The notes under the pieces are model-generated. The model was not told where the DNA came from, ran no database searches, and was given only the letters and a program-made list of their open reading frames with translations. Both the position numbers and the translations under genes were made by a program. 64,000 bases of DNA, from positions 1,054,001 to 1,118,000 of the forward strand of contig CM102285.1 in the NCBI GenBank assembly GCA_046563655.1, given 5' to 3'. Source of the DNA: Yuukianura sp. NJ FZ-2021 (Eukaryota). The number at the start of each line of letters is the position of its first letter. Within the stretch, counting starts at the first letter, position 1. Shown here piece by piece: positions 1,077 to 62,804 of this stretch.

Positions 1077-1195
1077 AGTGCGAGGCTGGACTGTATAAGT
1101 TAGGAATCGAATGGAATTTGTTAGTTATTTTAGATTTTTAAGATTTAGTTATTCTATCGGATTTAGTTATTTTAGAATCAAGAAAGTTAGAAACA

Positions 1196-28708: not shown

Positions 28709-31235
28709 TTATGTTTTTGGAGTTGGAGAGATTTGGATGAGGGGTTTGGCCATGCCAAGCTTTCCGTCAGCAAACAGAGCAAAAGCCTCGTTGATGGAAT
28801 CTACCGGAAAAGATTTTGATGGAATCGTTCTGAAGGCGCCAGATTCAAATTTCGGAACAAGTTCGCGCCAAATCTCCGTCATTTGACCTTTAGCCTCTGT
28901 GCTAAAGTTCAAGACAGAGTAAGTTACGTCTGGACGCAAAGAGTGGACGTAGTCTTGTGTCCAGTGTCCAGCTGGAGCAATGTCCACGAACATTCCATTC
29001 TCAGCGCACAAATTCAAACTTGGTTTTTTAAGATACTCAACTTCGAAGTTGTTAACGACGACAGTTAGACCTTGGCCCTTGGTGTCCCGCATTATTTCCG
29101 AAGCAAAGTCCATGCAACTAGTGAGGTCATAGATATGTTTGACCCCAGCTGATCTCAGATACTCCGTGCGTTCTTGACTACCCGACAGCGCGAACACTTC
29201 GGCTCCAAAAAGGCGGGAAATTTCAATCAGCGGAATTCCAATCCATCCTCGGCTGAGATTGACTAAGATTCGAGCTGGTTCGGCCCCACCGGAATGTTTG
29301 AGTCCCGCCAAACCCACGAGAGCGTGCCACGCAATGGTGTAAGAAAGTGGAACAGAAGCTGCGGTGGGGAGACTTAAAGTTGGTGGTACTTTGGCCAGCA
29401 TTTGTTGCGATACTTTCAGACGAGACGCCAGTGCTCCGCCGTCCAAGCACATTCCATAGACACGGTCTTCGGGCAACACCGTAGTTACAGCAGAACCAAC
29501 ATTTCGAACGATCCCGCTGAAATCAAATCCGAGTTTCCCGCCGTTTCCGGCATCCAGAATTCCTTTGTCTTTGTAGTTCAGTGAACAGAACGTTATGTCC
29601 ACCTCCACTTCTCCAGAATCTAGAGCTTCCATATCGCTGCAATATTTAAAAAAAACTTGTGAAGTTCAAAGTTAAGTTAATAACTGTAATCGTTAATTGT
29701 AATTGGTTGAATTACTTTTGAATTTCCCGCGATAACTTTCCCGGTGACGAAGCTTGGAAGTAGAAGTTAGCTGGACCGTGGCCAGTGTTAGCCAGAAGCC
29801 AAGCGTTCCAGTTGACCTTTAACCCCTCAACGCTGAGCAATTTCAGACAATTTAGCAGCGATTCTACTTCGTCCACTGATTCCTCCGTGAAGTAAAACAC
29901 TTTCGGTGGATTAGCTTCAAAATTCCTTGCAATAAGGTTCTTCAGTCGCGGTGTTGGCCCAATTTCAATCAAAATCCGGTTTTTCTAGAGAAAAAAAACA
30001 AAGAAAAAAAGTAAAAAACTTATGTCTAAGTTACAGGGTCGGATTTAAGCACAAAAGGTGCTGTAACATGGTAGCTCAATGGCGACAAGCCTATCCCGGA
30101 ATTGTACTGCTATGAGTTCGAGTCCCACTCCAAGCACGTATTATTCCTCACTCTTTCTTGTAATATACAATCGGTGAAAACCTACTGTGCATCGATTTCA
30201 ATTTGAAGCAAATTTGATTTGAAAAATTCAAAAAAGTTGGAATTTTTCAAAGTTCAAAATTTTTAGTTCCAACCTGCGCCACTAGGTGGATGGCCTTCGC
30301 AAAGTGAATCCGATTTCGCGTAAGTGCTGCCCAGTACTTTGGTGTGACCTCCACCATCTTTTCGCCAGTAGAACTCGAAATGTACGTCAGTTTTGGTGTG
30401 AAATGCGGTACTGTTGCAGCTATAGTGTCCAAGTCTTCCAAAATGGGATCCATGTGACTCATATGATAAGCATATGGAACGGAACCTTTTAAGCGTAAGT
30501 ACTGAACTCCGGTAGAAGCACAGTACCGCTCGAAAGCTTCTATCCGTTCAAACGTATCTCCGACACCGACACTCTCCGGGGCATTGATCACTGCAATTTC
30601 AGGCCCGCTTCCAGCTCCATTCAACTTTTCAAAATCAGCGATCAGCTGGGTCACTTTTTCAAAATTTGCCTTCAGCGCGGTGAAACATCCTCTGACGACT
30701 TTGGATTTTAATAACTTGGCTCTCTCCACAACGAGTTTCATTCCTCCTTCAACTGATAGAACTCCAGAAGTCACCGCTGCGGCATACTCACCTTGAAAAA
30801 AAGTGTGCCAAAAGTCGCCAAAATTTCAAAAATATGTTTAATTTACATTTAGTTTTGAAACTTACCGAAAGAGTGTCCGAGGACAACGGAAGGCTGGATG
30901 CCAAATTCTTTCAAAAGCTGAACCATGGCTACTTGGATACCGAAAATTCCTGGACAGCTGATTTCCGGATCTTCGAATACAGCTGACGGGTCCCACATCA
31001 TCGCTTGAAGCGATTTGCCAGTCAACTTGTGATGGATTTCTTCAACAGTATCCAACGCTGCTGCAAATGCTGGAATAGTTTCGTACAACCTCTTGCCCAT
31101 TCCATGATACTGAGATGCTTGCGGACTAAAAAGAAATACCACCTCCAAATCTAAACAAAAAATGAAATAATTTTAAAAATTCAAAAAATTCTAACGAAAA
31201 TTTTCGTAAAATTTTGGTTTTGACTAACCTTCCAT
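28709..31235 (-). CDS. Stand-alone PKS/FAS-type acyltransferase + MDR enoylreductase didomain protein, ~5 exons
   Basis: ME(D)LEVVFLFSPQASQYHGMG, GHSFG|EYAAA, PYAYH, IEIGP (AT domain); then EVEVDITFCSLNYKD, GFDFSGIV, AASVPLSYTIAWHAL, TKGQGLTVVVN (ER domain); no KS/ACP/KR exons on either side. Confidence 0.85.
30070..30129 (+). mobile_element. tRNA-derived SINE-like head, intronic
   Basis: GGTAGCTCAATGG (A box) and GAGTTCGAGTCCCACT (B box); flanks resemble the 5054 copy (GTGC..TAAC before, CACTCTTT after). Confidence 0.5.
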
Positions 31236-31859: not shown

Positions 31860-34800
31860 TTAGGAATTGAGAGTTGGATTTTGTTCCGGTTGGCCCAGCA
31901 TTGGAGCGACCTTGAGCCCCTCAATGGCTGTTCCAACATCAACCGTTTGCACTTTAGATCGACTCCGCTTCACTTTCTTGCGTCGAGTTCCAAACCTCTT
32001 CGTTGCGTCAGGCTGGAAGTGACGACGCATGTGCTTAGTAGCTCTGCTGAGCAGTGGTGTCGTGTAGATCTTACAAGTTGGGCACTTGAAACATCCAGTC
32101 TCATCTGCATGTTCGCTATTGACATGTTTGATGTAAGTCTTCTGATTATTAAAAACGGTGTAGCAGTAGAGACAGGTCATCGTCCTGCCTTCCTTCGGAG
32201 CTTCCCTGTCCTTGGCCACTTCTCTAGTGACTCTGACGACTCTCGTACGCTTTTCGGGGCTGGCGGGTCTCGGAGTTCGGTGGTGGTGCTCCGTCATGTG
32301 CCGATCCACCTCTTCCTGCGTTCGGAACCACTTGACAGGATCACACGCTCGACATTTATGAAGAGGCATTTGAAGTGGCAAAGTTGGTGGCGAACCGCTG
32401 GGGGAACGCGATTTGTGGACTTCACCGTTGACCCCGCTGACCTCGGTCTCAACTCTGGTCGGCCTTGGTTTATCAACGACTTGTGTCGGGCTAAAAGTTA
32501 AAAAAAAGTTATAAAAGCTTTACTTTTCCAAATAGGACAAATTCAAAATTTTGAAAATTTTAGAACTTCTTACTTAGGTTGTTGCTGTTGTTGTGGAAAA
32601 TGTGTCCGTTGATGAACCATAAGTTTTTCTTTCGTTTCGACCAAAATGAAACAAGCTTTGCATTGAAACCATTTTCTGTTGTTTCTGCTCGAATCAGTGG
32701 AAGCGGAACTTTCAGTTCGTTCGGATCGTGTAGGAGAACTTTCAGTTTTCGCAACTTCTGGTGCAGTGTCTACCTTGTCCACTTCCATTTTACTGTCCTC
32801 TGCTATTTCAACCTTGGATGTTTCTTTTTCTGGTTGGCCAGTCTCTTCCTGCTGCTCGTGCTTCGTTTCAACTTGAGCCGTTGCTGGACCAGCAGTATTT
32901 TGGTTGACCATTTTTGAAAGAGTTGGCATAGTCTGAGAAACTCCAATTTTTGCTTTCTTCATCAATGCTGGATGGGTTTTTCTCTTCATATGTTCATTGA
33001 TCTTCTTCAGAGTAGTTGGATTTAGTTCTGGACAAATTGGACAGGAGTAGAATCCGTCTCGATTCATATGCAGTTGACGCATATGCCGGCTGTAAATCAA
33101 AATAAACAATGATAAATCAATTAATTGATAATCGATTAATGTAAGAAGTTAAGTGAAGTTGGAACTTTACCTGTAGAGTTTCACAGACTGAAAGCTGAGT
33201 CCATCCGGAACGCAGTAGAAACAGGCATATGATTTCTGCATGTAACTAGTTCCAGTGAGGTGGTACCTCCTGCGTCGTGTGACGCCGACCAATCCTGCAC
33301 GCTTCCTTTTAGCAGCCAACCTTGAAGTTCTGGGAAGTGGCGGTGCTGATAGCGAAGCTGATGAAGCTGTTACTGATGTTGAAGCTGATGACGATGAAGC
33401 TGATTGAGCTGGTAGCTCCGCCCTTTCAGGGCGATGAACCATCGGAGGTGGTCGTTGCATCGTCTGTGCCACTCCAGCCACTTTACGAATCTGGTCTAAC
33501 CTGGAAGGTGGCTGGAGCATCTCGTGTCGTCTCTTGACATGCTCATTGAATCTGTTGAGTGTTGGATATGGCAAGTAGCAGTACGGACAGTTGAAGTTTC
33601 CATTGACATCCAGATGCTTCTTCATATGGTTAGAGTAGGAACTCACTTCACTCCAGTTCGTTCTACAGAATCGGCAAAAGTGCTTAGAAGAGCCAGGTGG
33701 GGGTGGTTGTGCTTGGGCCAATTCTGGTGGAACCAGGGCACGACGAAGTGCTGGCGGGGGAGGAGGGGGAAGTTCTGGAGCTGGAGGTGGAGTCGGTGGT
33801 TTTGTAATGCAGTGAACAATAAGGGCATGGTGGACAGTAGTTTCAAGTGAAGTTGCTCTGAAAGTACAGTGTGAGCAATACACTGCGTTGTCTCGGCAAT
33901 GATTCTGGAAGATGTGGTCAAAGTATTTTTCCAAGTTGGTGTGAGGAGTGGGTTCACTTTTTTCAAGACTGCACAGTGGACAATCTATTTCGTCCTTGGG
34001 TAGTGGAGGTGGCTGAAGGACGAGTGGATTCTTTGGACCACGATTCTGGTTCTGGATAGTGGGTACTTGAACAGTATGAGGAGGGGGAGGAGTGAATGGT
34101 GGAACATGGTAATCCATCTCCTCATCTTCATACTCCTCTTCATCCGGAAGATAATCATCAGCTGATCCTTGGTCCTCATGATCATCAACTTGCACAAATT
34201 CCTTTCGGTGGCTATCTGTACCATGTCTGTACTTGAAATGGCGAGCAATGAGTCGGATACTGTCACCAACAAAGTTGCAGTCAAAGCAATTGTAACGTCC
34301 CCGTGCATTTCGATGACGTAGGATCATATGGGATTCGTACTGCTTCCGAGACTCCCATGATTTGGAACAAAAGTAGCATAAAAACTGGCGATCGATTGGC
34401 AGAGTCGGTCGTCGTTGAAACTGACGAAAGTTGGAGACTGGACGAGGACGAGGTTTATTTCTAGGTGGAAATGCCTTGCCATAAACAGGGCCGCTGACGA
34501 ATGTCATTGTTTCTGGATGTGTCTTCTTAACGTGCTTGTTGAACAGCTGAAGTCCTGGTGTGGAGTAGTTACAGTATAAGCATTGATACGTTCCGTCCTC
34601 TTGCAAATGTTGGTCCCTCATGTGCTGCAAATCAAGAAAAAGTCAACAGTGTTTAGTCAACTCAACAATCAGATGCTAATTGGGGGTGTAAAGTAAGGTT
34701 AAAGTAGATTAATTGTAACCACGAAGCTCAGTATTTATCGATAATCAAAAGCTTACTACGGCGTATCTCGTTGATTGAAGCCATTTCGTTTTGGGTTTGC

Positions 34801-36452
34801 ACAAGTGACAAATGTATACGCGACCACGAGGTTGAATAGCAGCGGTATCCTCGTCATGTTCGTCAACGTGCTTCTCAAGGAACTGGACCGATCGTGTCCG
34901 AAATCCACATCCGGATTTTGAGCAATGAAACTGGCTGTCGCCCCGATGTTGAGTAAAGAGATGGTCAATGAACTCTGACCTTTTGCTTAACGTCAGATGC
35001 GGAGTACATAGTTTACATTTACGAGGCAAGTCTTCCACGACTTGAGAAGCATGCTGGTTCACTGTTATTGAAGTTGGGGCTCGGGTCAACCGCGGCATCG
35101 GCGGAAGACTGTCGTTGAGCTGCTCTGAGCTGTCTCCTTGGGTTGACCTCATGTCAAAGGTCACGTCGCTCCCTTCAATACGCGGAGTAAGAATGGTTGG
35201 AGAGAAAATGGTGACCCCGGCCTGTGTTAGCTGGTTTTCTAGACGGACTGGATCGTTATCACTGTCTTCTAGTGAAGCTGAAGAACCCTCGTGTAGTCGA
35301 ATGTGGAACAGAAATAGCATAGCATCCTCGAGGAGGACCGCACAGTACCTACACTGGTACCATAAGCTTCCCTGCACGCCGCCCCTAAAACCATACAAAA
35401 TACTAACGGTTAACTTCCTTAACAAAAAAGTTTACTTAAAACTGCGCCAGAAATGAAAATGTTTAAGAGCGGGGGCGTATCTTTACAATCAAAGTAATTC
35501 ATTTAGAAGTATTTCAAAAATTAGCGGATAATGACCATTGGGCAGCCCTTAGCCCATGACAGTTCCTCCAGATACAAGTCTTCGATTTCGTCAATTCATT
35601 TGACCTTGAGATAATGATAACCAGACACTAGTTGACCCAGATTGACCTCAACTATTGTATTGTTATTATGTTATGTAATGACCATACAGCTTGTGGTAGT
35701 ATTGGGTTAGTCACCCAAATTTACTGAACCGATTAATCGATAACTTATTAAAAAACGATCAGCTGATGAGATGCAGTGGCAAAAATCGTTAACGTAACGA
35801 TTAGTTGATTAAGTTAGATTTCATTCTTTCAAGTTACTTACTCTGGTTGAACCACGGTGTCCACGTTTGAATTTGCGCTCAATGTGACCTCTGGTTGCAG
35901 AATTGGAGGAGGAACGTCGTCAAAACATTGCCCATCATCCTCGTCACCGTCAATAGACGCGTGCACCTCCGCTTCCATGTGAAGCTCCAGATAATTACAA
36001 GCATCCGCATCTTCCAGCTCTGGCTCCACCTTCACCTTGCATTCTAACATCGGCGGTTCTGATTCCTCTGGCTCCACTTCAACGTCATTCTGCTCTGCTG
36101 AAACGTTAAATTTTCGTAAAAATTCGAAAATGTCTGACAATTGTAACAACTGAGATTCGATTTATTGTAGAAGATGCGGTAATGCAAAATAATTGAACCA
36201 TTTCATGATTTTTCATTTTAATTGTGTTAACCTGCCAAACCCAACCCAAGTGACATACCCGTGGCGGTGGAAACATAAAACGGGTTTGACATTTAATACT
36301 AATAATTTAAGCTGTTTTAAGCTAAAACAGCTAACCTGTAAAATCTTAAACATAGCGAGCATAGTTTAGTTTCATAAGCTTAAACTACTTTGAAATTCAT
36401 AATTATAATTCTTACGCTCTGTGTCTATACTCGGCTCGCCTTGAGTAGACAT
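31860..36452 (-). CDS. Large multi-C2H2 zinc-finger protein with proline-rich linkers, multi-exon
   Basis: Many CxxC...HxxxxH units, often paired (e.g. CYFC..HMILRH / CFDC..HFKYRH); acidic N-terminal exon; inferred first exon 36452-36416. Confidence 0.85.
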
Positions 36453-41812: not shown

Positions 41813-44315
41813 TTATACTGACGTTTCCGAGCCAAGTCGAAGTGTGAACTTGTTGTTCTTGGGGTCAATGACCTGTTCAGTGATATTGAAATGCGGGAGA
41901 CTCGTAACAGCGATGTACAGCGTTTCGTCGCCTCCTCTCAACACAAAACTCGTGTCTCCGCTCAACGTAGATGACACGGAATGGTCAGAAATCAATGCCC
42001 AAGACGAAACGGCTCCACCACGCATAGTCTGTAACAAAAATAGCTGATCACTTAGTTAAAAATTAGCTTAGCTTAGTTAGAATTTTGAATTTAAACATCG
42101 AATTTTGAAAATGGTGTTTTTACGTGAAGGGGAGTTGGAGTGGTTGTGAATTTTTCCAAGAACGCTCTTGGGCCAAGTCCAAGTTTCAGTGAGGTTGCCA
42201 AATGCTTGAGAACGCTTTCGGCCGTGTGCCATCTCAGTTGTCTTGTGAGTCTCAAGTATTTTTGAAGCGGTCGAGCAAGTGCTGGAAACACGGCAGCAGC
42301 AGCTTCTATCGAATCAAGCCGTGTTCCGCCTCCTTGAAAATATTTTCAAAATTTTGAGCAAGAATTTACACATTTGTTTTTTCATTTTTCAAATTTTTTC
42401 CAAACAGCTGTCTAACCTTGTTCCTCACGACGTCGCTTGATATGCCGAAATGCCTCTTCCGTGGCTCCAATGAGTCTGGCTCGTCGCTTGCGTAGACGTC
42501 GCTCGAATTCTTGCTCTTCATAGAACCGCTCGTTGTGCGAATTCCCACGTTGAGGACGAAGCATGGACTTGAAAAGAATAAGATTTAAAATATTAAAAAT
42601 TTAAGAATAATCATTTATATTTGATTAATTTAAATATTTTGAAGTTCTTACTGCTCCTGAGGCGACTCCATCCAGTTCGTAGAACTTAAACGAAGGAGCA
42701 ATTGATGGTTGATGAGAAAGTGAGTTATGGCGTCTGCGTAGAGGAGGAAGTCTGTCCATATGTGGATTGTACGCTGGAAATTCAGCGTAGTAGCGCTGCA
42801 AAACGAAAACAGCTGCTCGCTGAATACTCAGTTTTCCAATGCAGTACCTCCGTTCTACTCCATCCGGTGAGCGAAGAACTGAAATCTGAAGAAAAACTGT
42901 TAGCTTGTTTCAAAAATTGAACAAACTAAATTTTGGTTTAAAAACTTCCGGTTAGGTTTCTCAGTTTCCAAGAATAATGAAATATTGGCAGTATTTATCA
43001 AATACTGGAAGTACCTGAAAAGTTGGTGAGAGATGTTGAACTTCCGTTAGTAAAACTCCCAAATAATGCACAGCCAAAAGTCCATCGGCCAAACCTCCTA
43101 CATGACCAAAAATACTTGCGAATTTAAAAATTTTAGTTTTAAAGTTAGTTAAAGAACAACATTTCAACGATTATGAGCAGCATTTTGCTTACCGGCGAAT
43201 GCAACTGCTCCAAGTGTTGACAGCTCCTCCTCTCCGCGAACCTTAGTCCAGAAAAAGTAAGTTTCCGATAACTTAATTCTGTTAATTGAGATCAATTAGT
43301 CATGGATTACTTACGATATAGAAGAGCCAGAACGTGAAGGTAGCGATAACAGCGAGCATGAGTGCAACTGACTTGTGGAAAAATATTCTTGGCATGGTGG
43401 CTGGCGGTTGACGACAAAAAATACACCAAACAGCTCCACCCAAAACGATCATCTTGAGAGCCAGACTTATGAGCAACGCTGAGCACTCCGTTCCACATTC
43501 ACGAAGTCCCACCGGCGGCGGAGCCCATGAGGGAAATCCAACCTTAGGCCCCACCACCATCACAATGGGGCTCAACAGAGACAGGATAAGCAGAAACCCA
43601 CTGAAACAGGAACCCAAGTACCTAAAAGCAACAACAAAGTTTAATTCAAAGCCTTGAAAAAAACTTTTGAAAACGTTTCGAAATCGCTAAAACTTACCTG
43701 TGAGCCCATGACAGCCGACCTCTGTCGTTGTCATTTTCGTCAGCTGCGAGCTGGGCCCACTTGAATTCTCCGTTTCCCGTCACCCCTGTGGCGGTTGTTG
43801 TGGTTAATGTTGGTGAGATGGACCTATCCGAATTGTTTCCATTTTCCCTCTCGGTCACTTGATGATGTTCCGCTTGTACGTTTTCCCATGGTGCTCCCTA
43901 TCGAATCAAAAAACCAATGAACTGTGTCAGATAAGTTGAATCTAACTTTGATCAATTAAATACAAGACTTACGGTTGTAAATGGAATATTTTGTTGTCTC
44001 TGATCGAATTCTGGAGAGTAATCGTTGATACCCAATCGACTGTTTCTGCCGCCTCCCATCTCTACCAATGCATCTTCCTCTGGTCCAGTACCCCGAGCAG
44101 ACCTACCGTCGGTTATCCAAAGTTATGTCAGTTATAGCACAATTTATGTGAAATAGAAAGCAGGAAGAGATGACCCCTGACCTGATGTTACTTGTGGAAT
44201 GATGATGTCTCCTTTGCAAGTGTTTTTTGGATACTGAACTGGACAAAGACAGAGCACTGCCGCTTCTGTCTCTGGTTCGCCTTCCCTGTTGCGGTGTCAC
44301 GGCCACAACGTCCAT
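41813..44315 (-). CDS. Vang: Van Gogh/Strabismus planar-cell-polarity protein
   Basis: TM exons ([16 protein letters not shown]), [39 protein letters not shown]-terminal PDZ ligand RLGSETSV*. Confidence 0.93.
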
Positions 44316-45713
44316 ATCACTTCGTACGCAGCTCAAAGCAATGTGTCATCTCATGTTACCGAAATCGATAAGAATACGTCAGTGACGAGGACGATCGAAG
44401 ATCTACGGAAGGCAAAAATACAACACAGCTGATTAGTAATCGTCTTTCTCACAATTTGCAAAACCGAATAAGAAAATGAAATAAAAAGGGAATGATTCAA
44501 ATATCGACCGGTATTCTCAGGGTAAAAATAAGAGTTAAGCTAAAGATGTGCGGATTATAAGGTTGATGAAGAGTTGGTTAATCGATTAGTACCGGTAATC
44601 TTATCGTTGTTGAGATCTTTGTTGTGGGCGTTGTTCGTCGGCGGATTATGCACGGGAAAACCGAAATTCCGAAGAACGGGGTATCCCTCACTCTCACCCC
44701 TCATCTCCTTTCACCCTCTTGATTTACTACAAAAAAAAACAATGCAACCGACAAGTTTGTACGGACCAAGGTTTCTTTTTTTAAAAAAATTTTTGAAAGT
44801 TTTTTTTTTTGGAAACTGTGTCGATTCTTGTAAGGAATGTTGAATGTATCGCTTGAGCCTTACAAATTCATCATGGGTTGAATTTAAAACAGAAATCGCT
44901 GCAGAGTTAAATTTAAAAAAAAACTACCCTTCAATTAAACTGGTGGAAATAAGGATTAACGACAGTTATTGTAGCCTTATAATGTTGCCACTCCGCCACT
45001 TTTATGGTTACAATAGGTGCATACACCTGAGTGGCAACATAACTTTAATCTAACAAGTGCATAAGTTGCTGCGTTGTGTTGCCACTAACAATGGTCAGCG
45101 TGGCAACACTTTCAGGCTACAATGACGCTCGCTAAATATTATAGCAATCCTTAGACTTTAATTACTTTTACGTTAATTGCGATTAGTCTTTTATTTAAAG
45201 TAAGAGTTAAATTAAAAGTTCATAAACACTTCCGCTACTTCCTATCTTAAGCGTTATCCTTGTTAAATGTTAAATCGGACTCGTGGTGCATATGTCTGAC
45301 GAATAACAGCTGGAATTCCCCACTAAATTTGTTTAAACCTCTTTTGTTTAAATTTTGACAGAATTTTAGTTCTAAAAATAAATCTCTTGACACTCCCCGG
45401 CAAGAGTTAGTTGAAGCGAGTCCTTGGGGAAGAGCCAACTTTTTTAGAAATTCTAAATTCTAAAATTAGGGTTGCTTTTTAGTCTTAGGAAGTGCAGAGG
45501 TCTGGACGACGTCGCGTGGTTAGCGGGGCAGTGGGGCACGAGGCACAAATTAAGAAAAAGTTTAAAAGCTTTTTTAATCTTTTGTCTTCTCCTGTTTTGC
45601 TTCCCCCGCCAACCAGCGACGAGGTAAAACTACTTAAGCTTACTTTCAAAAAACAAGATTTTTTTTTTCAAAATTTCAAATTTTTTTTTAGTTTGACCTT
45701 GACCTCTGACATC

Positions 45714-47325
45714 ATGGACTCATTTGGGGCAGACATTTCCTTAAGTCTGGGTGGTAAGGTGAAGTGGATCCCATCTAAATATCACTACGACGACATTGGA
45801 TCCAGGCTATTCCAGGACATCATGGCCTTGCCAGAGTACTATCCAACTCCATGCGAATTTCAAATCCTATCGACGCATGCGCCAGCGATCCTCAGTTTGC
45901 TTAACTTTGGACGCAACTTCAAGGTCGTCGAGCTGGGATGTGGCGATGGCCTCAAAACGCTGGAACTACTGCGAGCATTCTGCACCGCTCTGGCTGATTT
46001 TACATACGTTCCGGTTGATATCTGCGCAGAAGCGGTGGACAACGCAGAACGGCGCATGCGTGAAGACCTTCCGGCTCTGCGCATGGAGCCCTTAGTAGGT
46101 GACTACTTTGCCCTGTTGGACGAACTTCGACTGAAAGGGCAGGAGTGCCTATTCCTGTTCCTTGGCGGAAATATTGGAAATTTTACTTGGGAAGAAGCCA
46201 TGGACTTCCTGGGCAGAATTTGGAAGCGCATGGCAAGTGGAGACAAAATTCTAATTGGATTTGACCTTCAGAAAGACCCGGAAGTCATTTCAAAAGCTTA
46301 CAATGATTCTCAGGTAAACTCATATCAAAATCACGCACTTTGCGTGTTATCATGTTAAGTGTCGAAAAATAACAACAAGGTCAAAACGGGTTTTTCCAAA
46401 AACGTTTTTTTTACATGAATTGTTCCGTCGTAAAAACGTTTTTTGCTCGAAACTTCTCATGCCAAAACGTTTTTTGTAAAACAAGACTTATTTGTTCTTT
46501 TCGACAAAAAAAAACAAACACTGCAGCTGGAAGCGTGCTGGGGCTTCGCCGCAGATTACTGTCAATACTAGTATATTAATTAATTATTTTACATCTTCAC
46601 AAAATTTTAAAAAATTTTGAAATTTAGAAATTCTTATCAATGGTGTTCGAGTCATTAGTTTTGAACTTTTCGTTACAAGCTCTGCTGTGCAAAGCGTGTT
46701 GGAGCTTCGCCCAAAACCATTCCAAGCTTCTTTCTGCTGAATCTTCGACAAATGAGAAGTCTCACATTGCCCCCAAAATTTTATATAAAAATATTTGGCG
46801 GGAATGGAAATTTCGAAACTTAAAAATTTCATTAGTATTTACTGCAATAGGTAACACGCGAAAGCACGGACACATACCCATACCTTTCAAATAGTAATGG
46901 ATATGATGTTGTGTTGACAAAATTGTTGTTGACAAAGTTGTTATTAATATGTTGTTTATCTAATTCTTGTTGATCATTTTAACTAGGGTGTAACACGAGC
47001 CTTCAACATGAACCTGCTGGAGCGGATTCGTCAAGAACTAAAAGCAGACGTGAATTTGTCTCACTTTGACTTTTTGTCCAACTACAATCCAAATACCGGA
47101 GAAGTCCGAACGTACCTCGTCAGTCTCCGGCAACAAACGTTTCGAAGTGACGTTCTCAACCAAACTTTCAAATTTGAAAAAGACGAAAAAATTCAAGTCG
47201 AGTTGTCCAAAAAATATACTCTTTCAGAAATTGACTCTTTAGCTACCTCACTCCGATTCAACGTCCTCAACAACTTTCTGGACGACAAAAACTACTACAC
47301 AGTTTCACTGTGGGAAAAAAACTAA
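45714..47325 (+). CDS. egtD: EgtD-family (Methyltransf_33) L-histidine N-alpha-methyltransferase-like, 312 aa, exons 45714-46313 and 46987-47325
   Basis: KWIPSKYHYDDIGSRLFQDIMALPEYYPT, SAM motif VVELGCGDGLKT, YVPVDI, FLGGNIGN, GFDLQKD...AYNDSQ|GVTRAFNMNLLERI, VELSKKY; phase-0 GT-AG intron restores the frame. Confidence 0.92.
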
Positions 47326-48610
47326 ACAATAACAAGCAATTATTTAGTAGTTAAGAGAGGTCGTATGTCAAAAAGTTCAAAATTTAAAATTCAACAAAAA
47401 GTGTTTTGACGTCCAACCAAAACCCATTGACCTCTGACGTCAAATAGTCCATTGTTGTTTACAGCAGTACACAAATCATATAGTAAACTACTTATTACCA
47501 CAAAAAAACTATTTTAATGCGCAGATTACGTTACAAATGATCAAGTTGTGATCGTGATCAGGTTCAATAAAGATGTTGTTGTCTTACAACTGGACGAGAA
47601 ACATGCAATGTAACAAAAAAGTTTTGTTTTTCTTTAAAAAGTTCATAAAAACTTGTTTTTCTAAAGTAGCAGTTATTAATTTTCACAGACTTTTGACTTC
47701 TGGAAAATCCTTGCTTTTGAAAACCAGAAATAGATTGAGAACAAAAAGAGTTTTTAGTTACTAAGTAAACAATTTTGAAAACTTTTGTTGAGGAAGTTTT
47801 AAAGGTCAAAGGTCACGAGAAAAAATTTTGAACTTGGCCTTGTTCAAATTGGTTTCGGAAGTTTGGGAATTTACAAAGTTTAAAGAAAATTCCCTTACGA
47901 AGTTTTTTTTTGTGAAAAGTTTTAAGTTTTTGGTGAAAATTTCTCACCAATTTGAGGAAATTTTAACTTTTTAAAAGTTAAGTAAGAGCATGCGCAGGTT
48001 GCATGCCAGTTTTAGTGAAAATCTACGTCAATCTTCTCACATTCTCTTCAAAATTTTGGTTCAGACTAGTTTTTTGAAAAAAAAATTAGACCCATAGTTC
48101 CTAGTGCAGCAAAAAATGTGTTATGTAAAAATATTCGCGAATTTCCAGGAAAGGTTGTTTAGATGGATTAATTAAAATTAAAAAACAATTCTTTAAGAAA
48201 TGAAATCATTAAAAAACTGGAAAATTTAGTTTTCGAAGCAAATAGAAACTACTAAATTTCTCACGTACGTTAAAAGTCATAGTGTTGTTTGAGAACTACT
48301 TAGGACAACGTAACAAGTATTTTTAGTCAGTCAAACAGGTTTTTGAAAAATTCAAATTTCAAAAAGAAAAAAAATTGACGACTCGGAAAATCCATCAGTT
48401 TATTGCCTTATTTAATTACAAATTAAATCCTACTTACAACTACACTCAGAAATGACCATTTGATACAAAAAACAAATTACATGATGACCTATGCACATTA
48501 TCGCACATGCGCATTATACACGAACTTTATTCCAAAAACCTCTTTTGTGAATTTTTTTCTAAAGTTTTACGTTTCAGTTCAGTTTTAATACTTTTTTTTA
48601 GTTAAGCAGT

Positions 48611-50194
48611 TTAGCTTTTTCTTCTGTAAATCAAATCGAGTAGTTCTTTAACTGGTTTGCGCAGTGGTTCTGGCTGAATCACTTGAATTCTTTTCAAAAT
48701 CCTGTCGTACTCCTTCACTTCAAACCTTTGAAAAACACGCTTCATGTTCAGCGTTTTGTAAATCGCTTGGACTTTTTCAACATTTCCTTCCTTGGGTGAT
48801 CCGTAGCTCTCTTGCAGAATGGCTTTCTGTTCCAGTGTGGCTCTCTCCAGTGCTTCCACGATCATCCAACTGCACTTTCCATCTAGGATGTCCGTCCCCA
48901 CCTTCCCAGTGACCTTGGGGTCACCGTAAAGATCCAAATAGTCGTCCTGGATTTGGAACAAACGACCAATATCCACCAAAACGTCCTTCACCTTCTCATA
49001 TGTCGCTGTATCGCTGACTCCACCCTGCAACAAAAAAGAACGGGAAATGTTGAACAACGCCGTAAAAGTTAAAAAGTTAAAAGTTAGATAATTGAAAGAT
49101 AAAACAGTGAAAAAGTTACAAGCTAAAAAGTTGACAGTGAAAAGATGAAAAGTAAAAAAAGGACAAAAAGTTAAGTTAAAATTTAAAACGTTAAAAATTA
49201 AAAGTTGAAGAGTTAAAAGTTAGAAGCTAAAAGCTAAAAGCTAAAAGCTAAAAGTTGAAAGTTGAGAGCTAAAAGCTAAGGGCCAAAAGCTAAAAGTTAA
49301 AAGTTGACATGTTAAAAGATAAAGTTAAAACTTGGAAACGAGAGTTGAAAAAGTTTTCACTTACGAGGATCATGCCGAGGGCGACTGGGCAACAGAAGGA
49401 GTAGATGCTAGTTTTGTACTTGACAATTGTGTCGTATGTGGAACGAGTGAACCTGAAAGTTGATTTAAAAAGTTGACCTTTGACCTATGACTTTTGACCT
49501 TTGACCTGTGAAACTGACCTGGCAAAGTCTGGGAGGATGCTGAATCGCGTGTCCAGTGCTTGTCCAAGGATAGTGACGAGCATCGTATCTTGACACATGA
49601 CCATGAAACTTTCGTAGAACTCCGTGTCAAAGAAATACTTCCGAATCAAGCGCCACGCAATATTCTGCAGCAGCAAAACGTCGTTGATTGCCGACAAACC
49701 GACGTCTGCACGCATGTACCACGCCGGTTTCCCGCGGCGCACTGTAGATCCATCCATGATATCATCAGCAATGAGGGCAGAGGTGTGAAACTTTAGAATT
49801 TCAAAAAAAAACCTTCAAAATGTCCATTTGGTTCAAAATTTTGAAAAAGTTGAAAAATTAGACTCACAATTTCTGAAACCCAACCGGCGACGCAAACCAA
49901 GAAGTCCATTTCTGGTGAGCGCTCTTTTAGACTTCTGTATACGACCGTGATAGCAACAGCTCTGATGAAAAAATTTCAAAAAATGTTTAAAATTTTGAAA
50001 AATTTCAAATTTTTTTTGAAAACGAACCTGCTCTGTTTTCCAAACGGAACATTCAACTCCATCACGGTTTCCAACCAGCCCATGATTGCTCCCAATTCTG
50101 AAAATTGTTCGTCTGTTTTCAAATCAACCAAAATCTTTTTCCAAACCACCATCAACTCCTTCCGCATAGCGTCGGTATCTGTAAAATTACTCAT
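48611..50194 (-). CDS. FPPS-like trans-isoprenyl diphosphate synthase, copy 1 (5 exons, 344 aa)
   Basis: Exons 50194-50028, 49961-49868, 49790-49519, 49452-49365, 49024-48611; FARM DDIMD..RRGKPAWY, GQALD, KYKT, SARM QIQDDYLD, GKVGTDI.DGKCSW. Confidence 0.92.
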
Positions 50195-51357: not shown

Positions 51358-52734
51358 TTAACTTTTTCTTCTGTAAATCAAATCGAGTAGTTCTTTAACT
51401 GGTTTGCGCAGTGGTTCTGGCTGAATCACTTGAATTCTTTTTAAAATCCGATCGTACTCCTTCACTTCAAACCTTTGAAAAACACGCTTCATGTTCAGCG
51501 TCTTGTAAATCGCTTGCACTTTTTCGACATTTCCTTCTTTGGGTGATCCGTAGCTCTCTTGCAGAATGGCTTTCTGTTCCAGTGTGGCTCTCTCCAGTGC
51601 TTCCACGATCATCCAACTGCACTTTCCATCCAGGATGTCCGTCCCCACCTTCCCAGTGACCTTGGGATCACCGTAAAGATCCAAATAGTCGTCCTGGATT
51701 TGGAACAACCGACCAATATCCACCAAAACGTCCTTCACCTTCTCATAAGTCCCTGTGTCGCTTACTCCACCCTGCAACAACAAGAAGGGAAAATGTTGAA
51801 CAACGCCGTAAAAGTTAAAACTTAAAATGTTAAGAGTCAGAAACCTAAAATTTAAGAGTTACAAAGTTGAAAACGGGAGTTAAAACAGTTTTCACTTACG
51901 AGTATCATGCCGATGGCGACTGGGCAGCAGAAGGAGTAGATGCTAGTTTTGTATTTGACCAAGGTGTCGTATGTAGAACGAGTGAATCTGGAAGTTAGTT
52001 AAAAAAAGTTGACCTTTGACCTTTGACCTTTGACCTTTGACCAGTAAAACTAACCTGGAAATGTCAGGGATGATGCTGAATCGAGTGTCCAATGCTTGGC
52101 CAAGAATGGTGACGATCACCGTGTCCTGACACAAGACCATAAAACTTTCGTAGAATTCCGTGTCAAAGAAATACTTGCGAATCATGCGCCACGCAATATT
52201 CTGCAGCATCAAAACGTCGTTGATTGCTGACATGCCGACGTCTGCACGCATGTACCACGCCGGTTTCCCTCGGCGAACTGTGGATCCATCCATGATATCA
52301 TCAGCCATGAGGGCAGAGGTGTGAAACTTTAGAATTTCAAAAAAAAAAACTTCAAAATGTCCATTTGGTTCAAAATTTCGAAAAAGTTAAAGACTTGAAC
52401 TCACAATTTCTGCAATCCAACCGGCTACAGATACCAGAAAATCCATGTCGGGTGTACGCTCTTTGGCTAGACTTCTGTATACAACCGTGATTGCAATAGC
52501 TCTGATCCAAAAATTTCAAAAAATTTTAAAAATTTTGAAAAATTTCAATTTTTTTTTGAAAACGAACCTGCTTTGTTTTCCAAACGGAACGTTCAACTCC
52601 ATCACAGTTTCCAACCAGCCCATGATTGCTCCTAATTCAGATAATTGTTCGTCTGTTTTCAAATCAACTAAAATCTTTTTCCAAACCACCATCAACTCCT
52701 TCCGCATAGCGTCGGTATCCGTGAAATTACTCAT
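51358..52734 (-). CDS. FPPS-like trans-isoprenyl diphosphate synthase, copy 2 (tandem duplicate)
   Basis: Same exon structure and near-identical protein; HTSALMADDIMD, QIQDDYLD. Confidence 0.92.
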
Positions 52735-56053: not shown

Positions 56054-57793
56054 ATGAGCAACACTAAAACTACGGAGTGTGTGCCGCGGAAAAGGTGAGC
56101 TTTTTTTAAACTACAGATAATACATATTTCTAACCATAATTTTTTGAACTTTGGTTTCGGAGCTCTATTTGCAGTTTGTGTGTACAAAATTTTCCAAAAA
56201 AAAAATGTTTCTAGATTAATTGAATTTGCTCCGCTTTGGATTCCTTTGTCAAGGCGCTTGGAAACTGTAATGAAAATAGTTTATGTAATTTAAAACTATA
56301 TATTTATATAAATTTATTATAATAATTATTACAACTAATTCCAGTTTGGCGTTGCGTGGTTGCCGTTAATTTGGTTTCTTCCTGTTCTTGGTCCTCTTCT
56401 GCTTATTTACGTACTACTGTACACCAGCTACTGGTGTTTCGGACTTGCCTACATCATTTGGATGATTTATGATAGTAACATTGCGAAACTGGGTGGACGG
56501 AAGTACAAAACATTTTTAAAATTTTGAATTTTTTTTTTGAAAAAGGTAAAAAAAATTTTTTTTTTGTTTGAAAGGTTTTACTTTTTGCGGAACTTGATAC
56601 TGTGGAAATGGTACTGCAATTACTTTCCAATTCGGTTAGTGAAAACGGCGGAATTAGACCCATCCAGGAACTACGTCCTGACGTGCCACCCCCATGGAAT
56701 GTTTTGTTCCGGCAAGAGCACCTTTTTTTTTTGAAAATCTTGTAAAATTTTGAAATTTTTGGGACCTAACCTAATTTCTGTAAAATGTAAAAGGTATGCA
56801 CGGAAATTTTTCTTCCGAGGGTACCAACGTCAGTCAAGTTTTCCCTGGAATCAAAATAACCTTTCTAGCGCTTGACTTATTTTTTCGAATTCCAGTATTT
56901 CGTGATGTCGTACTAGCGTGTGGTACCATTAAATTTCAAGTTCAAATCAAATCTTAATATAAAGATAACTTTTGAAATTCACTATTTGCAGGTGGATGTT
57001 CCGTATCGCGGGAAGGTATAAATTTTCTGTTGAGTAAAAACGGCGTCGGAAATGGTGTGTTAATTGTACCTGGGGGAGCTCGTGAAAGTTAGTAACTGCA
57101 ACTTTGAAAAAATCTTCTAAAACCTTTTCCAAAATTTTGTTTTCTAAGATATTTAAAAATTCTAAGACTACCTACGACTTTTTTAAACTTAAGTTTTGTA
57201 ACATGTCTATGTAGTGCTTTACTCTTCTCCCGGAACAGACATCGTTTACCTGAAAAAACGAAAAGGATTTATCAAGGTCGCTATTCAACATGGGTACGTT
57301 AGCCAAATGAAAGTTTTTGAAAATTTGAACATTCTAAAAGTTCCTGCAAGACCCAAAATCAAAATCTTGAATTTCAGAGCTCCACTAGTACCAATTTACA
57401 GTTTTGGTGAAACCGACATTTACTCCCAACCGCATAACCCGAAGAGATCTTGGCTTAGGAATTTCCAGGATAAATGCACAGATCTGTTCGGGGGAGCGCC
57501 ACCTTTGGTTTTAGGCAGAGGAATTTTTCAGTATTCATTTGGATTTCTTCCAAGACGTTGTCCAATTACTTCAGTCGGTAGGATTTTCGGAAAATATAAT
57601 CAAAATTTTGAAAAATCATATTCAAAATTTCCATTTTTCAGTCGGTGCACCAATCCCTGTGGAGCTGCAAGCCAATCCGAACCAAGAATATATTGACGAA
57701 GTTCATGCCAAGTACATGTCTGCACTCACAGATTTGTTCTACGCCTATCGTGGCAAATACGGCCATGCAGACTCAGAGCTCGTCATCATTTGA
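56054..57793 (+). CDS. DGAT2/MOGAT-family acyltransferase, multi-exon
   Basis: [74 protein letters not shown]; one GC-AG intron at ~56712. Confidence 0.92.
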
Positions 57794-58162
57794 AGTTTCT
57801 AATTTTAAATTTGACGTTTTGTTCAAACTAGAGCTTATTCTTAAAATGTATACCATCAAATCAATTTGAAGCAAGCTCGAAGCGCTATCTCTTGATAGAT
57901 TGTCTAAGTGTGACTAAAAAAAGCAGCGATTTACATTTTCAAAGTTCTGTTTAAACTTGCTCGTTATTTTTGTCGTAAAACTATGCATGTGCGGACAAAT
58001 TTCCGCAAAATAAATATTAGAACGTGAGCAAAAATTTCATAAAAAAAAGATAAATTTTCAAAAAAATTATCAATATAAAATTTAAAAAAACAACCTTCTA
58101 CACCATTATGTTTTCACGCAATATCTCTTCCCAATATATCTCAGAGATATCTAATAGGTTGT

Positions 58163-59130
58163 GAAAAGGTTGCAAGACGCACTACTCTGCATCCAAAGCC
58201 ATTTGGCAGCAAACCGACAACCGGCGACAAACTTTCAAAATGGCACTACGAAAACCTTGTGCAAAAAGATGGGTTCCGAACTGAATCGTACCGTCGGCGT
58301 ATTGACTGGAAGGACTGCAAATACAATTCAGACCTTTACTATCACTTATATGCATCAGAAAAGGAACTTGAATTGCGACGGTCAGAAGAAAGCTACTACT
58401 TGTACAGAATTGCTTCGTTGATTGGCACAACGTCGTTTTCCCTCCAAAAAATGTTTCACTCAAACTGTATGACGCTCACGATGGATCCATATACCAAAAA
58501 TTTGTCGCTTATGCTAGATTCACATTACAAAGCAACTCGCAGACTTTATGCTAGTTGCATGTTGTCACAGTTTTCTGCTTTTTGCGAGTTGCGTGTTCAC
58601 ACTGGGCCTTTTCTCGAGGCCCGAATGATAAGGAAAGTCGCGGGCAGACGGTTCAAAGGACGCACATCAAAAGTCGCCTTCATATGTGAACGCTTTCACT
58701 TCGGGAATAGGGGAAGACATGCAGTTTCTGCCTTTCAGCTTCGTTTGACGAAGCTCACAAAATCTTGTCTGCGCAACCCTTTTGGAGCAGATTTTCTGCC
58801 GCAGTTTTGTGAGTGTGAACAGCAGCCACAACTCCTTTCGGCAGAAAAAGCTGCCCGCAACTTTTGATAAAATTTTCTGCACATTCCAATCTCTAGTGTG
58901 AACGCGCATCAGCAAAGACCACCCAGAATTCGAGCAGAAATCTGCGAGTTGCGGTGTGATGTGAATCCAGGATTATGTCAACAACAGTCAATGTCACGCT
59001 GACGTCAGTCTCAATGTTGTCCGTGGATATCGTAAACGGTAATGGAATGCGAAAGGGCTTTGACATAACCAACCGAATGTTCCTTTGGCATGGAACAAAA
59101 CGCAGAAACATAGCGAAAATACTGAATTCA
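58163..59130 (+). pseudogene. PARP/ART catalytic-domain-like pseudogene fragment interrupted by a MITE
   Basis: Removing 58512-58972 plus one TTA joins ORF 58259 to ORF 58975 in frame, giving NRMFLWHGTKRRNIAKIL (PARP HG motif); truncated after ~59130. Confidence 0.6.
58512..58972. mobile_element. PIF/Harbinger (Tourist-like) MITE, 461 bp
   Basis: TIRs TGCTAGATTCACATTACAAAGCAACTCGCAGA / TCCTGGATTCACATCACACCGCAACTCGCAGA; TTA TSD at 58509-58511 and 58973-58975. Confidence 0.82.
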
Positions 59131-60556: not shown

Positions 60557-61113
60557 AGGTATATGCAGGTTTTCAAAAACTTTCGCGGTAATTCAATATT
60601 CATAAGTTTCCTCCCATGAAACCAACGTATGCGCAAACATAGGTCCAAAAGAAGCTCACAAATACTTACATCGGCTTAAAATGTAAACCAATTGGTTCAA
60701 GACAAAATGGTTAAAAAATGTTAGTTTAGCTGTTGCATTTTTGTTGGGGTCAGGCAACTTTTTCTGAAATTTTTCTAAGTTTTTTTTTCGCCAAATTAGT
60801 TTTAAGAAGTTGTCTTGGTAGACGAAAAGCTAAAATCGAACGTTAAACACATGTGTTTTCCACATTTTTTGTTAATTAAAAACCTAACTGACGTCATTTA
60901 AAAAAAAACAAGAATTTTAACTTGATTAATTTTGAATTTTCGTTTTATAGTTTGTCGAATTCCTGTGGGAGAAAGAAAAATTTCCTTCTCTCGTAATAGC
61001 GTCAGAGAAGTATGGCAATTTTTTTTTGCTTTAACGTAAATCTATATAAAGCATGCATCAATATATGAAGATTCAAATAAGACCAATAATTGGTTTGTTA
61101 ACTGTCTTTCATT

Positions 61114-62804
61114 ATGTGTCTGAATCACTTTTTTAGGAGTATTCTAACAGTTATCCTAGGCATACTAGGATTTCTACTGTTAATTTTTGTAGCAGTACCA
61201 ATTTTGGTTTACCGACAAATTTTAGCCAATGTCGCACCTTGTTTTGTGAAAAACTTAGGCAAAATTTTACCCCCACAAAGCCAATACTTCCTTAGTTTCA
61301 AACGCCGCGAAACATATAATATCCTCATCTGGTTTAAACTTTCTGGAAAATTGAACGTTGATTTAGTAAGAGACAAATTCCGAACCGAACTTCTTTTCGT
61401 CCGGAATGACTCGGGTGACTTCGTTTATTCCGAATTGCAGCAATATCCAACTATGTTTGGTGGATATGCCTTCTGGAAGTGGGAGGAGTCATTCGACCTG
61501 GACAAACACATTCACCACATGACTTTGGACCAAGAGGCTGACGCTCATGCGCAGTTTGAGCGGATGCTCCAGACTCCTCTTCCTGAAAAAATGAGTCCGT
61601 GGGAAACGACATTTTTGGAGTTTGGCGATAACCCAGATTGTCATTTCATTTGTTTCAAATTTCACCACAGTTTGTGTGATGGTGAAGCAATTTTTGATGC
61701 TCTGATGCGTATGACGGACTCAGAGCCTCATCGACTACAGTTTCCAAAAGAACCACGAGGTTCATGTTTTGGTTTTTTCTGCACCATTTTTTATTTCATC
61801 AGTTCATATTTCAATAAAATTTACGATTTCACTGACACAGCGCCAATGATTTTCGACGGTTCAAATCTTACCGGAGTAAGACGTTTTCCAATGTCAAGGT
61901 CATTTTACCTGCGTCAAGCGAAACAGTTGAGGTCAAAGGTCACCGTGTCCGTGTCCATGACGATGCTGGGAGTTCTCACAGGAGCCATTCGAAGAAAACT
62001 TGAAAATGAGGGAAAGTCAATTCCAAAGCTCATGCGCTGCCTGATTCCAATTTCGGCGCCAAGCCACCCGAAAAAATTGACGAACAAAGTGTACCTAAGT
62101 TCAAATTCTGATACAAAATTTGAAACTTTATTTTTTATTGTAACTTTAAATATTTTATCACACTTTTATTTTTTAGGTTGATGGTTGACTTGGCGCTACC
62201 AGTTGACGCTGCGAGTGGGTACCAACGTTTGGCGTTGCTCGAACGCCAAGCACAGAAGGAACGCATTGTCAAGTCGAGTTTGGTGACATATTTGTTATTT
62301 CTTCTGAATGCTTCCATGCCAAAATGCTGGATGGTTCCAGTTCTTCCAGTAAACACAATACTTGCAAGTATATTTCCCGGACCAACAGAGCAATTTTATG
62401 TTGGTGGAAACCCTGTGGAGGATATGGCGTACGCTTTGAATGGTGGAACTCATGGTACATATTTTTATAATGCATGCATTTTTATTAAAGCATCTAACCT
62501 AAAATAGTAAAAGGGTTAGGTTATGTAATTATTATGTATATATATAGTGTCATGTCTAAGCGATATAACAACAATATATAACATGTACCAGAATATATAT
62601 AACTAGAGCATATCTAAAGAATCAGAAATACTTTGTTTAATAGCACTGATTGTGAACATTTGTTCGTACAATGGAAACTTTCGATACTGGCTGGGAGTCG
62701 ATGCTAAAATTTCCTCAACAGAACAAAACGCAGAGGAATTTGTTCAATACCTTGGCGATGAACTTCATGAGCTAATCAAATCAGAGTCTAATGTGACTGT
62801 TTAA
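61114..62804 (+). CDS. Wax-ester synthase/DGAT-like (HHxxxDG) O-acyltransferase, 3 exons
   Basis: N-terminal TM segment, FDLDKHIH, PEKMSPWE, FKFHHSLCDG, LTNK, SIFPGP; last exon 62644-62804 (..ICSYNGNFR..). Confidence 0.82.

Follow-up and report, generated by a model that had tools for sequence, protein, structure and literature searches.

The mycobacterial L-histidine N-alpha-trimethyltransferase EgtD (4PIM, 4UY6, 7SCF) is encoded within the five-gene egtA-E cluster (PMC6154287). Fungi possess a eukaryotic member of the same Methyltransf_33 family, Egt1/EgtA, for which hercynine likewise represents the first step, but in which the methyltransferase is fused to a sulfoxide synthase (Methyltransf_33 followed by DinB_2/FGE-sulfatase). 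According to reviews, animals do not make ergothioneine and obtain it from the diet by means of a dedicated transporter (PMC7653990, PMC9816654, PMC11722985). Transfers of related enzymes into animals were described for the ovothiol branch: bdelloid rotifers received OvoA, and Hydrozoa an OvoB-like domain of Bacteroidetes origin (Gerdol et al. 2019, cited in PMC8433421). In this study, an EgtD-like gene located at positions 45714-47325 on the forward strand of a 64,000-nucleotide (nt) stretch of animal DNA was analyzed (Yuukianura sp. NJ FZ-2021, assembly GCA_046563655.1, contig CM102285.1, positions 1,054,001 to 1,118,000; this whole stretch is referred to as the window). It is probably a bacterial egtD that was transferred from Bacteroidota to the animal germ line and is now a working host gene, most likely encoding a hercynine synthase.

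Compared with these systems, the animal protein has the same length as EgtD of Bacteroidota such as Flavobacterium suaedae (L025) and Dyadobacter frigoris (L021). Its 312 amino acids (aa) are colinear over residues 1-311 with uninterrupted bacterial open reading frames of 310-320 aa, with a top identity of 54%. Both proteins contain the LG(S/G)NIGN loop and the Glu/Ser substrate motif, and where mycobacterial EgtD has Met252, both have a small hydroxyl residue. In contrast to its bacterial counterparts, the animal gene features two introns, resides at an animal locus and has no adjacent egtB; furthermore, the animal protein and its orthologue on the metagenome contig L001 are set apart by a long stem branch and by Thr at the Met252 position and Arg at column 215, where the bacterial proteins have Ser and Asn, respectively. 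Mycobacterial EgtD is a distant member of the family in which the same nine histidine-site residues occur, whereas its Met252 and Thr163 are replaced by Thr and Asn in the animal protein, as in or near the Bacteroidota type. Unlike Egt1, the animal protein is unfused, and no EgtB-like sequence was found in the window; the stand-alone architecture proposed by an earlier model-made reading of the sequence (first-pass annotation) agrees with the TAA stop codon after 312 aa. The OvoA and OvoB-like transfers likewise proceeded from bacteria to animals and concerned enzymes for histidine-derived antioxidants, one proposed donor also belonging to the Bacteroidota. However, they affect a sulfoxide synthase and a lyase of the ovothiol branch, whereas the animal EgtD would be an N-alpha-methyltransferase opening the ergothioneine branch.

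The coding region starts with an ATG at 45714 and is divided into two exons. Coding exon 1 (45714-46313; 600 nt, 200 codons) contains the S-adenosylmethionine (SAM)-binding Rossmann part with the GxGxG motif and the LGGNIGN loop. It is followed by an intron in phase 0 (46314-46986, forward strand; 673 nt, GT..AG, 33% G+C), which is located at the same position in the orthologue L001, and in which the continued exon 1 frame meets a stop at 46358. Coding exon 2 (46987-47325, forward strand) comprises 112 codons plus TAA (47323-47325) and, according to the PF10017 profile and the alignment to 4PIM, encodes the substrate-lid part with Thr203, Thr242, Glu272 and Ser274. Family and profile scans were run exon by exon on the unjoined sequences, whereas the joined 312-aa protein was used for alignments with bacterial open reading frames. 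Pfam PF10017 (Methyltransf_33) matched exon 1 over profile positions 2-194 (E 3.2e-59, 200.9 bits) and exon 2 over positions 195-303 of 304 (E 2.1e-26, 93.1 bits), both well above the gathering score of 23 bits. Since the two profile pieces meet at 194/195, nothing is lost or duplicated between the exons. As judged from these scans, the agreement between gene model and profile is far beyond chance, and the model given in the first-pass annotation (ATG, two exons, one phase-0 intron, 312-aa Methyltransf_33 protein) can be retained.

Contigs of the EgtD-like gene were present in two metatranscriptome runs originating from different studies (X5 and X7). The X7 contig matches positions 45690-45822 and 46025-46239 and carries 18 additional upstream letters that correspond, with one mismatch, to 45604-45621; this place is unique in the window, with zero such matches expected by chance. 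Because AG occurs at both 45622-45623 and 45690-45691, the junction in X7 is read as 45623|45692. The X5 contig covers 45690-46096 without differences and has the same start as X7. Hence, all on the forward strand, the transcript comprises the 3' end of a non-coding first exon in the 5' untranslated region (5' UTR; 45604-45623), a spliceosomal 5'-UTR intron of 68 nt (45624-45691; GT..AG, 18% G+C), and a second exon (45692-46313) composed of a 22-nt leader and coding exon 1, the latter exon being supported by sequence, PF10017 and both RNA contigs. The spliced leader was examined over 166 nt and contains no upstream ATG; the start codon is flanked by A at -3 and G at +4. A candidate polyadenylation signal, AATAAA, was located by pattern scan at 47566-47571 (forward strand), approximately 240 nt past the stop codon. 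The EgtD-like gene is transcribed, and its 5'-UTR intron is spliced, with exactly the boundaries that had previously been suggested as a possibility. Absence of a spliced transcript had been named as an argument against a host gene; spliced RNA was found for the 5'-UTR intron, and the RNA contigs end before the coding junction. Splicing at 46313/46987 is deduced from the continuity of the profile and the conserved intron position.

In order to place the gene phylogenetically, exon 1 was compared with 5.8 billion clustered proteins of 110-350 aa, yielding 1282 relatives among 1400 candidates. Among the best 120 of these 1282 relatives, two metagenome proteins showed 74% and 63% identity, and the other 118 ranged from 48 to 53%. 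All organism-named entries among the 120 (27 of 27, 48-53% identity) belong to the Bacteroidota, being assigned to Dyadobacter, Flavobacterium, Winogradskyella, Arundinibacter, Telluribacter or Cyclobacteriaceae. An exhaustive search of 1.84 billion representatives returned 6025 matches at E <= 0.001, with one close cluster at 330 bits and the following ones from 200 bits downwards. The Atlas clusters for the window methyltransferase are bacterial. Furthermore, in a scan of one genome per prokaryotic species, the best 80 of at least 597 relatives (among 600 matched stretches) were mostly from Bacteroidota and Acidobacteriota.

Two trees were calculated, in which the window protein and L001 were the only eukaryotic Methyltransf_33 sequences, fungal ones not being included. 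In the tree of 107 sequences, from which L019, L075 and L084 were omitted as truncated or over-long and to which ten representatives were added, window and L001 formed a pair supported at 100 within a Bacteroidota-dominated clade of 55 sequences (Shimodaira-Hasegawa-like approximate likelihood ratio test, SH-aLRT, 97). This clade consists of Flavobacteriales, Dyadobacter-type Cytophagales and Sphingobacteriales, with Hymenobacter and Acidobacteriota placed outside. In the tree of 53 sequences, a subset chosen by the authors (support given as ultrafast bootstrap, UFBoot/SH-aLRT), the pair (100/100) was located inside a Bacteroidota clade of 29 sequences (100/99), with five Flavobacterium-group sequences as sister (90/89). 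The closest sister group varies between the two trees, and the placement within Bacteroidota is constant. Searches and trees thus indicate that the EgtD-like gene is of Bacteroidota origin, in line with the horizontal transfer proposed in the first-pass annotation. Nesting in a widespread metazoan clade, which would have spoken for vertical inheritance, was not observed, as only two close relatives were found in the protein libraries searched. An old eukaryotic gene common with fungal Egt1 might be considered, since fungi, also opisthokonts, possess the Methyltransf_33 domain in Egt1 (PMC8433421). However, the nesting at 100/99, the low number of close relatives and the unfused protein ending at its stop codon argue against such an origin. 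Moreover, the best 150 of the 6025 representative matches are 161-423 aa long and none is of fungal fusion size, so that fused fungal forms must be more distant, an argument based on ranking and not on a joint tree with fungi. Vertical descent is therefore regarded as highly improbable.

The orthologue on the metagenome contig L001 (3082 bp) starts with an ATG at 279, contains a GT..AG intron at 882-1399 and extends in exon 2 to 1740. Its phase-0 intron follows the same residue as that of the window gene, and the two intron sequences are unalignable; the DNA alignment of both genes is confined to exons. From its sequence, L001 likely also contains a 5'-UTR intron at 156-246. A synteny comparison revealed no similarity to the window in the 3-kb L001 contig outside the EgtD-like gene. 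In the metagenome protein P0002, family similarity ends directly after the same intron-position residue. Three further, short proteins (P0123, P0124 and P0172) were considered as additional intron-bearing lineages and rejected, since their similarity breaks off at a different position in each case and they otherwise resemble the bacterial type.

The EgtD-like coding sequence has a G+C content of 46% overall and of 51% at third codon positions (GC3), values that are bracketed by those of ten neighbouring exon pieces (43-50% and 33-57%, respectively). Among the four nearest bacterial genes checked, three have a G+C content of 31-37% and one of 47%. An unbroken contig from the DNA run X1 extends over 45400-46398 and includes upstream non-coding sequence, exon 1 and the beginning of the intron; since X1 is possibly the source sample, this contig does not count as independent support. 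Two stretches are represented among DNA contigs of X6, a second coded organism: 46243-46411, which spans the exon/intron boundary, shows 5 differences, and 47075-47334 shows 10 (approximately 96-97% identity). Bacterial contamination or a chimeric assembly could be suspected from the bacterial affiliation of the closest named relatives and from the linkage to the neighbouring Vang gene, which is that seen in the window assembly. Nevertheless, the two GT..AG introns, one of them spliced in RNA, the host-like composition, the unbroken X1 contig, the intron position shared with L001 and a best bacterial identity of only 54% render this explanation scarcely credible. The EgtD-like gene is a host gene and no contaminant.

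At the protein level, the window gene and L001 are identical at 216 of 312 residues (69%). The rate of nonsynonymous substitutions (dN) is 0.21-0.22, the synonymous rate (dS) is saturated (undefined by NG86, 2.38 by maximum likelihood), and dN/dS amounts to approximately 0.09. An alignment of 94 bacterial sequences defines 70 columns with at least 95% conservation, of which 64 are kept in the window protein and 65 in L001. This substitution pattern indicates that the EgtD-like gene is under purifying selection. A decaying or silent relic of the transfer without function would be compatible with the lack of RNA across the coding splice junction and of a partner gene nearby. However, the frames are intact in both the window and L001, dN/dS is low, most conserved columns are kept, and transcripts occur in two metatranscriptome studies, one of them spliced; a relic is accordingly disfavoured as very unlikely.

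To predict the function of the encoded protein, mycobacterial EgtD (4PIM) was mapped by hand from printed alignments, in which the chain index minus 2 equals the published numbering, consistently for ten residues. The solved mycobacterial EgtD matched the window at E 3e-26 in exon 1 and at E 1e-4 in exon 2. Nine residues of its histidine site, Tyr39, Phe47, Tyr56, Gly161, Asn166, Tyr206, Thr213, Glu282 and Ser284, are kept as Tyr25, Phe33, Tyr42, Gly151, Asn156, Tyr196, Thr203, Glu272 and Ser274, respectively. The nine residues are also present in L001, and among the bacterial sequences in 93/94 cases at Thr203 and in 94/94 at the other eight positions. How these EgtD residues contact histidine at its carboxylate, alpha-amino group and imidazole was described previously (PMC8593015, PMC9103826). 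Based on these correspondences, the product is most likely a stand-alone class I SAM-dependent methyltransferase with L-histidine as ligand, and histidine and hercynine are most likely its substrate and product, respectively. The Glu of the VELSKKY motif, previously taken to be that of the histidine site, was verified by the alignment, in which Glu272 is equivalent to Glu282.

Two further positions differ from the mycobacterial enzyme. At the Thr163 position, Asn is present in the window protein, L001 and 93/94 bacterial sequences. The position of Met252, which we take to line the imidazole pocket of EgtD, is occupied by Thr (Thr242) in the window protein and L001, and by Ser in 94/94 bacterial relatives. 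As most of these relatives are egtB-adjacent, Met is no feature of the egtB-linked clade. The first-pass annotation had considered the sequence EVRTYL unusual and the substrate consequently open; this point was corrected, since with Ser in all 94 relatives the animal sequence is no departure from a general 'EM' rule. By comparison with the donor-type sequences, Thr at this position is a conservative change from the donor state that is common to L001. The NCBIfam EgtD equivalog model TIGR03438 scored 177.9 and 80.3 bits for the two exons, i.e., 258.2 bits when summed exon-wise, in relation to a cutoff of 290.9 bits defined for whole proteins. Two egtB-adjacent bacterial homologues reached 296.1 and 281.1 bits, the latter, from Dyadobacter, being below the cutoff; with one homologue on either side, the cutoff does not cleanly separate the clade.

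Analysis of the bacterial loci showed that an EgtB-like gene is located directly upstream of egtD in 86 of 98 cases; in three of the 12 remaining loci, the upstream flank is shorter than 200 nt. Two loci were scanned with TIGR03440, which identified the upstream gene as EgtB in both (523 and 519 bits; cutoff 360). The egtB adjacency in bacterial relatives indicates that the ancestors of the animal gene made hercynine for ergothioneine. In the Sphingobacteriales loci L056, L060 and L062, no EgtB-like gene was detected within approximately 6 kb on either side, which means that stand-alone egtD occurs in bacteria, too. On the L001 contig, tblastn with the EgtB sequence of L025 returned no match.

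Several observations weigh against a hercynine synthase working in the animal host. The window protein and L001 are placed on a long stem (0.98-1.16 changes per site) and share the replacement of Ser by Thr at the Met252 position and of Asn215 by Arg, both in columns otherwise invariant in bacteria. Moreover, the window protein differs in 6 of 70 bacterially conserved columns, and its summed TIGR03438 score of 258 bits remains below the cutoff of 290.9. No EgtB/OvoA-like sequence was found in the 64-kb window (tblastn of L025 EgtB, best E 0.43). Furthermore, the X5 and X7 RNA contigs end at 46096 and 46239, short of the coding junction 46313/46987, and originate from environmental metatranscriptomes, not from an identified animal; the linkage to Vang is that of the window assembly alone. 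Part of these observations would fit a transferred enzyme that changed its job and now converts another substrate, e.g., an aromatic amino acid to its betaine, or another amine. The long stem, the two shared substitutions at bacterially invariant columns (one of them in the imidazole pocket), the lack of a sulfoxide synthase partner at the locus and the equivalog score below the cutoff are all compatible with such a change, and mutation of both Met252 and Glu282 reportedly shifts EgtD to tryptophan. However, neither the window protein nor L001 has lost any of the nine site residues, among them Glu272, the counterpart of Glu282, and the exchange of Ser for Thr is conservative. In addition, the EasF model TIGR03439 scored only 104.3 and 34.6 bits exon-wise, far below its cutoff of 205.55. 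A changed substrate is therefore considered rather unlikely, and a hercynine synthase of Bacteroidota origin remains the preferred interpretation.

According to this preferred interpretation, egtD would have been located directly behind egtB in an ergothioneine operon of the donor lineage, from which it would have passed from a Bacteroidota bacterium into the animal germ line. At the animal locus, egtD alone is present. Following transfer, the gene would have acquired its two spliceosomal introns (one in the 5' UTR and the phase-0 coding intron), a host-like base composition and its position head to head with Vang. In the encoded enzyme, three sets of residues are predicted to hold histidine: Tyr42, Tyr196 and Ser274 at the carboxylate, Asn156 and Gly151 at the alpha-amino group, and Thr203 and Glu272 at the imidazole. 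The alpha-amino group would be methylated three times to yield hercynine. Hercynine may then represent the end product, functioning as a betaine or antioxidant, or may be converted to ergothioneine by a sulfoxide synthase of the OvoA or EgtB type encoded elsewhere. OvoA can accept hercynine; it is found widely among invertebrates, and losses are reported for nematodes, arthropods and vertebrates (PMC8433421). It is conceivable, albeit doubtful, that the animal lineage itself makes ergothioneine or another hercynine-derived thiol by means of a native OvoA, or of an EgtB gained in a separate event, encoded elsewhere in its genome.

The EgtD-like gene is flanked by genes of animal type. Exons of a Strabismus/Van Gogh-like (Vang) gene were identified on the reverse strand at 42415-43686, with PF06638 matches at 42625-42909 and 43300-43686 (E 1.1e-25 and 5.8e-23). 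Residues 216-520 of the 522-aa Vang protein P0121 map by tblastn to 43563-42415, which places the missing 5' exons between 43686 and approximately 45400 and arranges Vang and the EgtD-like gene head to head. To our knowledge, Vang is restricted to animals, and the nearest Atlas clusters of the window Vang are 100% Eukaryota, most commonly Chordata; a comparison of a Vang exon with longer proteins returned only two matches, neither carrying an organism name. On the other side, two FPPS-like (polyprenyl synthetase) genes assigned to PF00348 are arranged in tandem on the reverse strand (48611-49814 and 51358-52386). Approximately 2 kb separate the mapped Vang exons from the ATG, and 1.3 kb lie between the stop codon and the FPPS-like gene. 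The first-pass annotation had named Vang and FPPS-like genes as animal neighbours, which the PF06638 and PF00348 matches and the P0121 mapping substantiate; together with the introns, they also bear out its claim of integration into an animal locus. Further out, protein kinase, DAGAT, WS/DGAT, SH2, F-box and acyltransferase/enoyl-reductase pieces were detected. The best named matches of an aminopeptidase exon in the window are from molluscs (43-45%) and a flatworm (40%); these identities are too low to assign a phylum and point to a protostome, perhaps a spiralian, that lacks close annotated relatives.

Additional observations were made on the EgtD-like gene and its surroundings. In the DNA run X1, sequencing depth at 46362-46960, 45622-45695 and 47324-47471 is several times the flanking value of 205 and exceeds 2000 in one bin, and many partly fitting X1 contigs occur at these stretches. 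The depth spikes suggest that these stretches, the first of which lies in intron 2, contain repeats with many copies elsewhere in the genome. This multi-copy signal comes solely from X1 depth, and within the window intron 2 occurs only once. At 47109-47256, two X1 contigs cover the same 148 bases with 0 and 6 differences at depths of 105 and 61, which fits two haplotypes or close copies approximately 4% apart. The tandem FPPS-like genes are 88-92% identical in DNA, pointing to a fairly recent duplication directly behind the EgtD-like gene.

Elsewhere in the window, a wax ester synthase/DGAT (WS/DGAT) piece is located at 61102-62507 on the forward strand (PF03007, E 1.6e-9; C-terminal PF06974, E 3.3e-4), with a DGAT2-type acyltransferase (PF03982) beside it at 57202-57793, also on the forward strand. 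As the WS/DGAT type is mainly bacterial and plant, this piece could be a second foreign-looking gene of the window, related to lipids. Serial acyl transferase and zinc-type enoyl-reductase pieces at 28709-31172 (reverse strand) resemble the arrangement in type I fatty acid/polyketide synthases. Long open frames at 31860-35431 (reverse strand), the most G+C-rich part of the window (0.44-0.46), are rich in Cys/His pairs and C2H2 zinc-finger-like when read in translation. Moreover, long open frames of 262-356 aa occur at 54-1124 (reverse strand) and, on the forward strand, at 1142-2047, 25350-26159 and 58079-58867, the last three without a Pfam match; the four may be genes particular to the lineage or remnants of mobile elements. 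Neither the Rfam scan nor the tRNA scan of the window yielded a match.

In the literature searched, no report of an animal-encoded EgtD was found. The main text of a compendium of horizontal gene transfer in Metazoa (PMC13342648) does not contain the terms 'ergothioneine', 'histidine', 'methyltransferase' or 'EgtD'; its tables may list such a gene. By sequence, the animal enzyme is an ordinary EgtD, and transfers into small invertebrates are not rare. The gene would add the ergothioneine branch to the known transfers of thiol-histidine enzymes into animals (OvoA, OvoB-like). Moreover, it represents a natural case of operon splitting, in which egtD occurs without egtB, and raises the question of an independent role for hercynine as opposed to recruitment of a host OvoA. 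Ergothioneine in animals is described as strictly diet-derived (PMC7653990, PMC11722985). With a selected and transcribed animal gene for the committed first step, the rule that animals do not synthesize this compound would become directly testable in one lineage. If this lineage does complete the pathway, it would be without known precedent among animals, in which reviews attribute the compound strictly to the diet.

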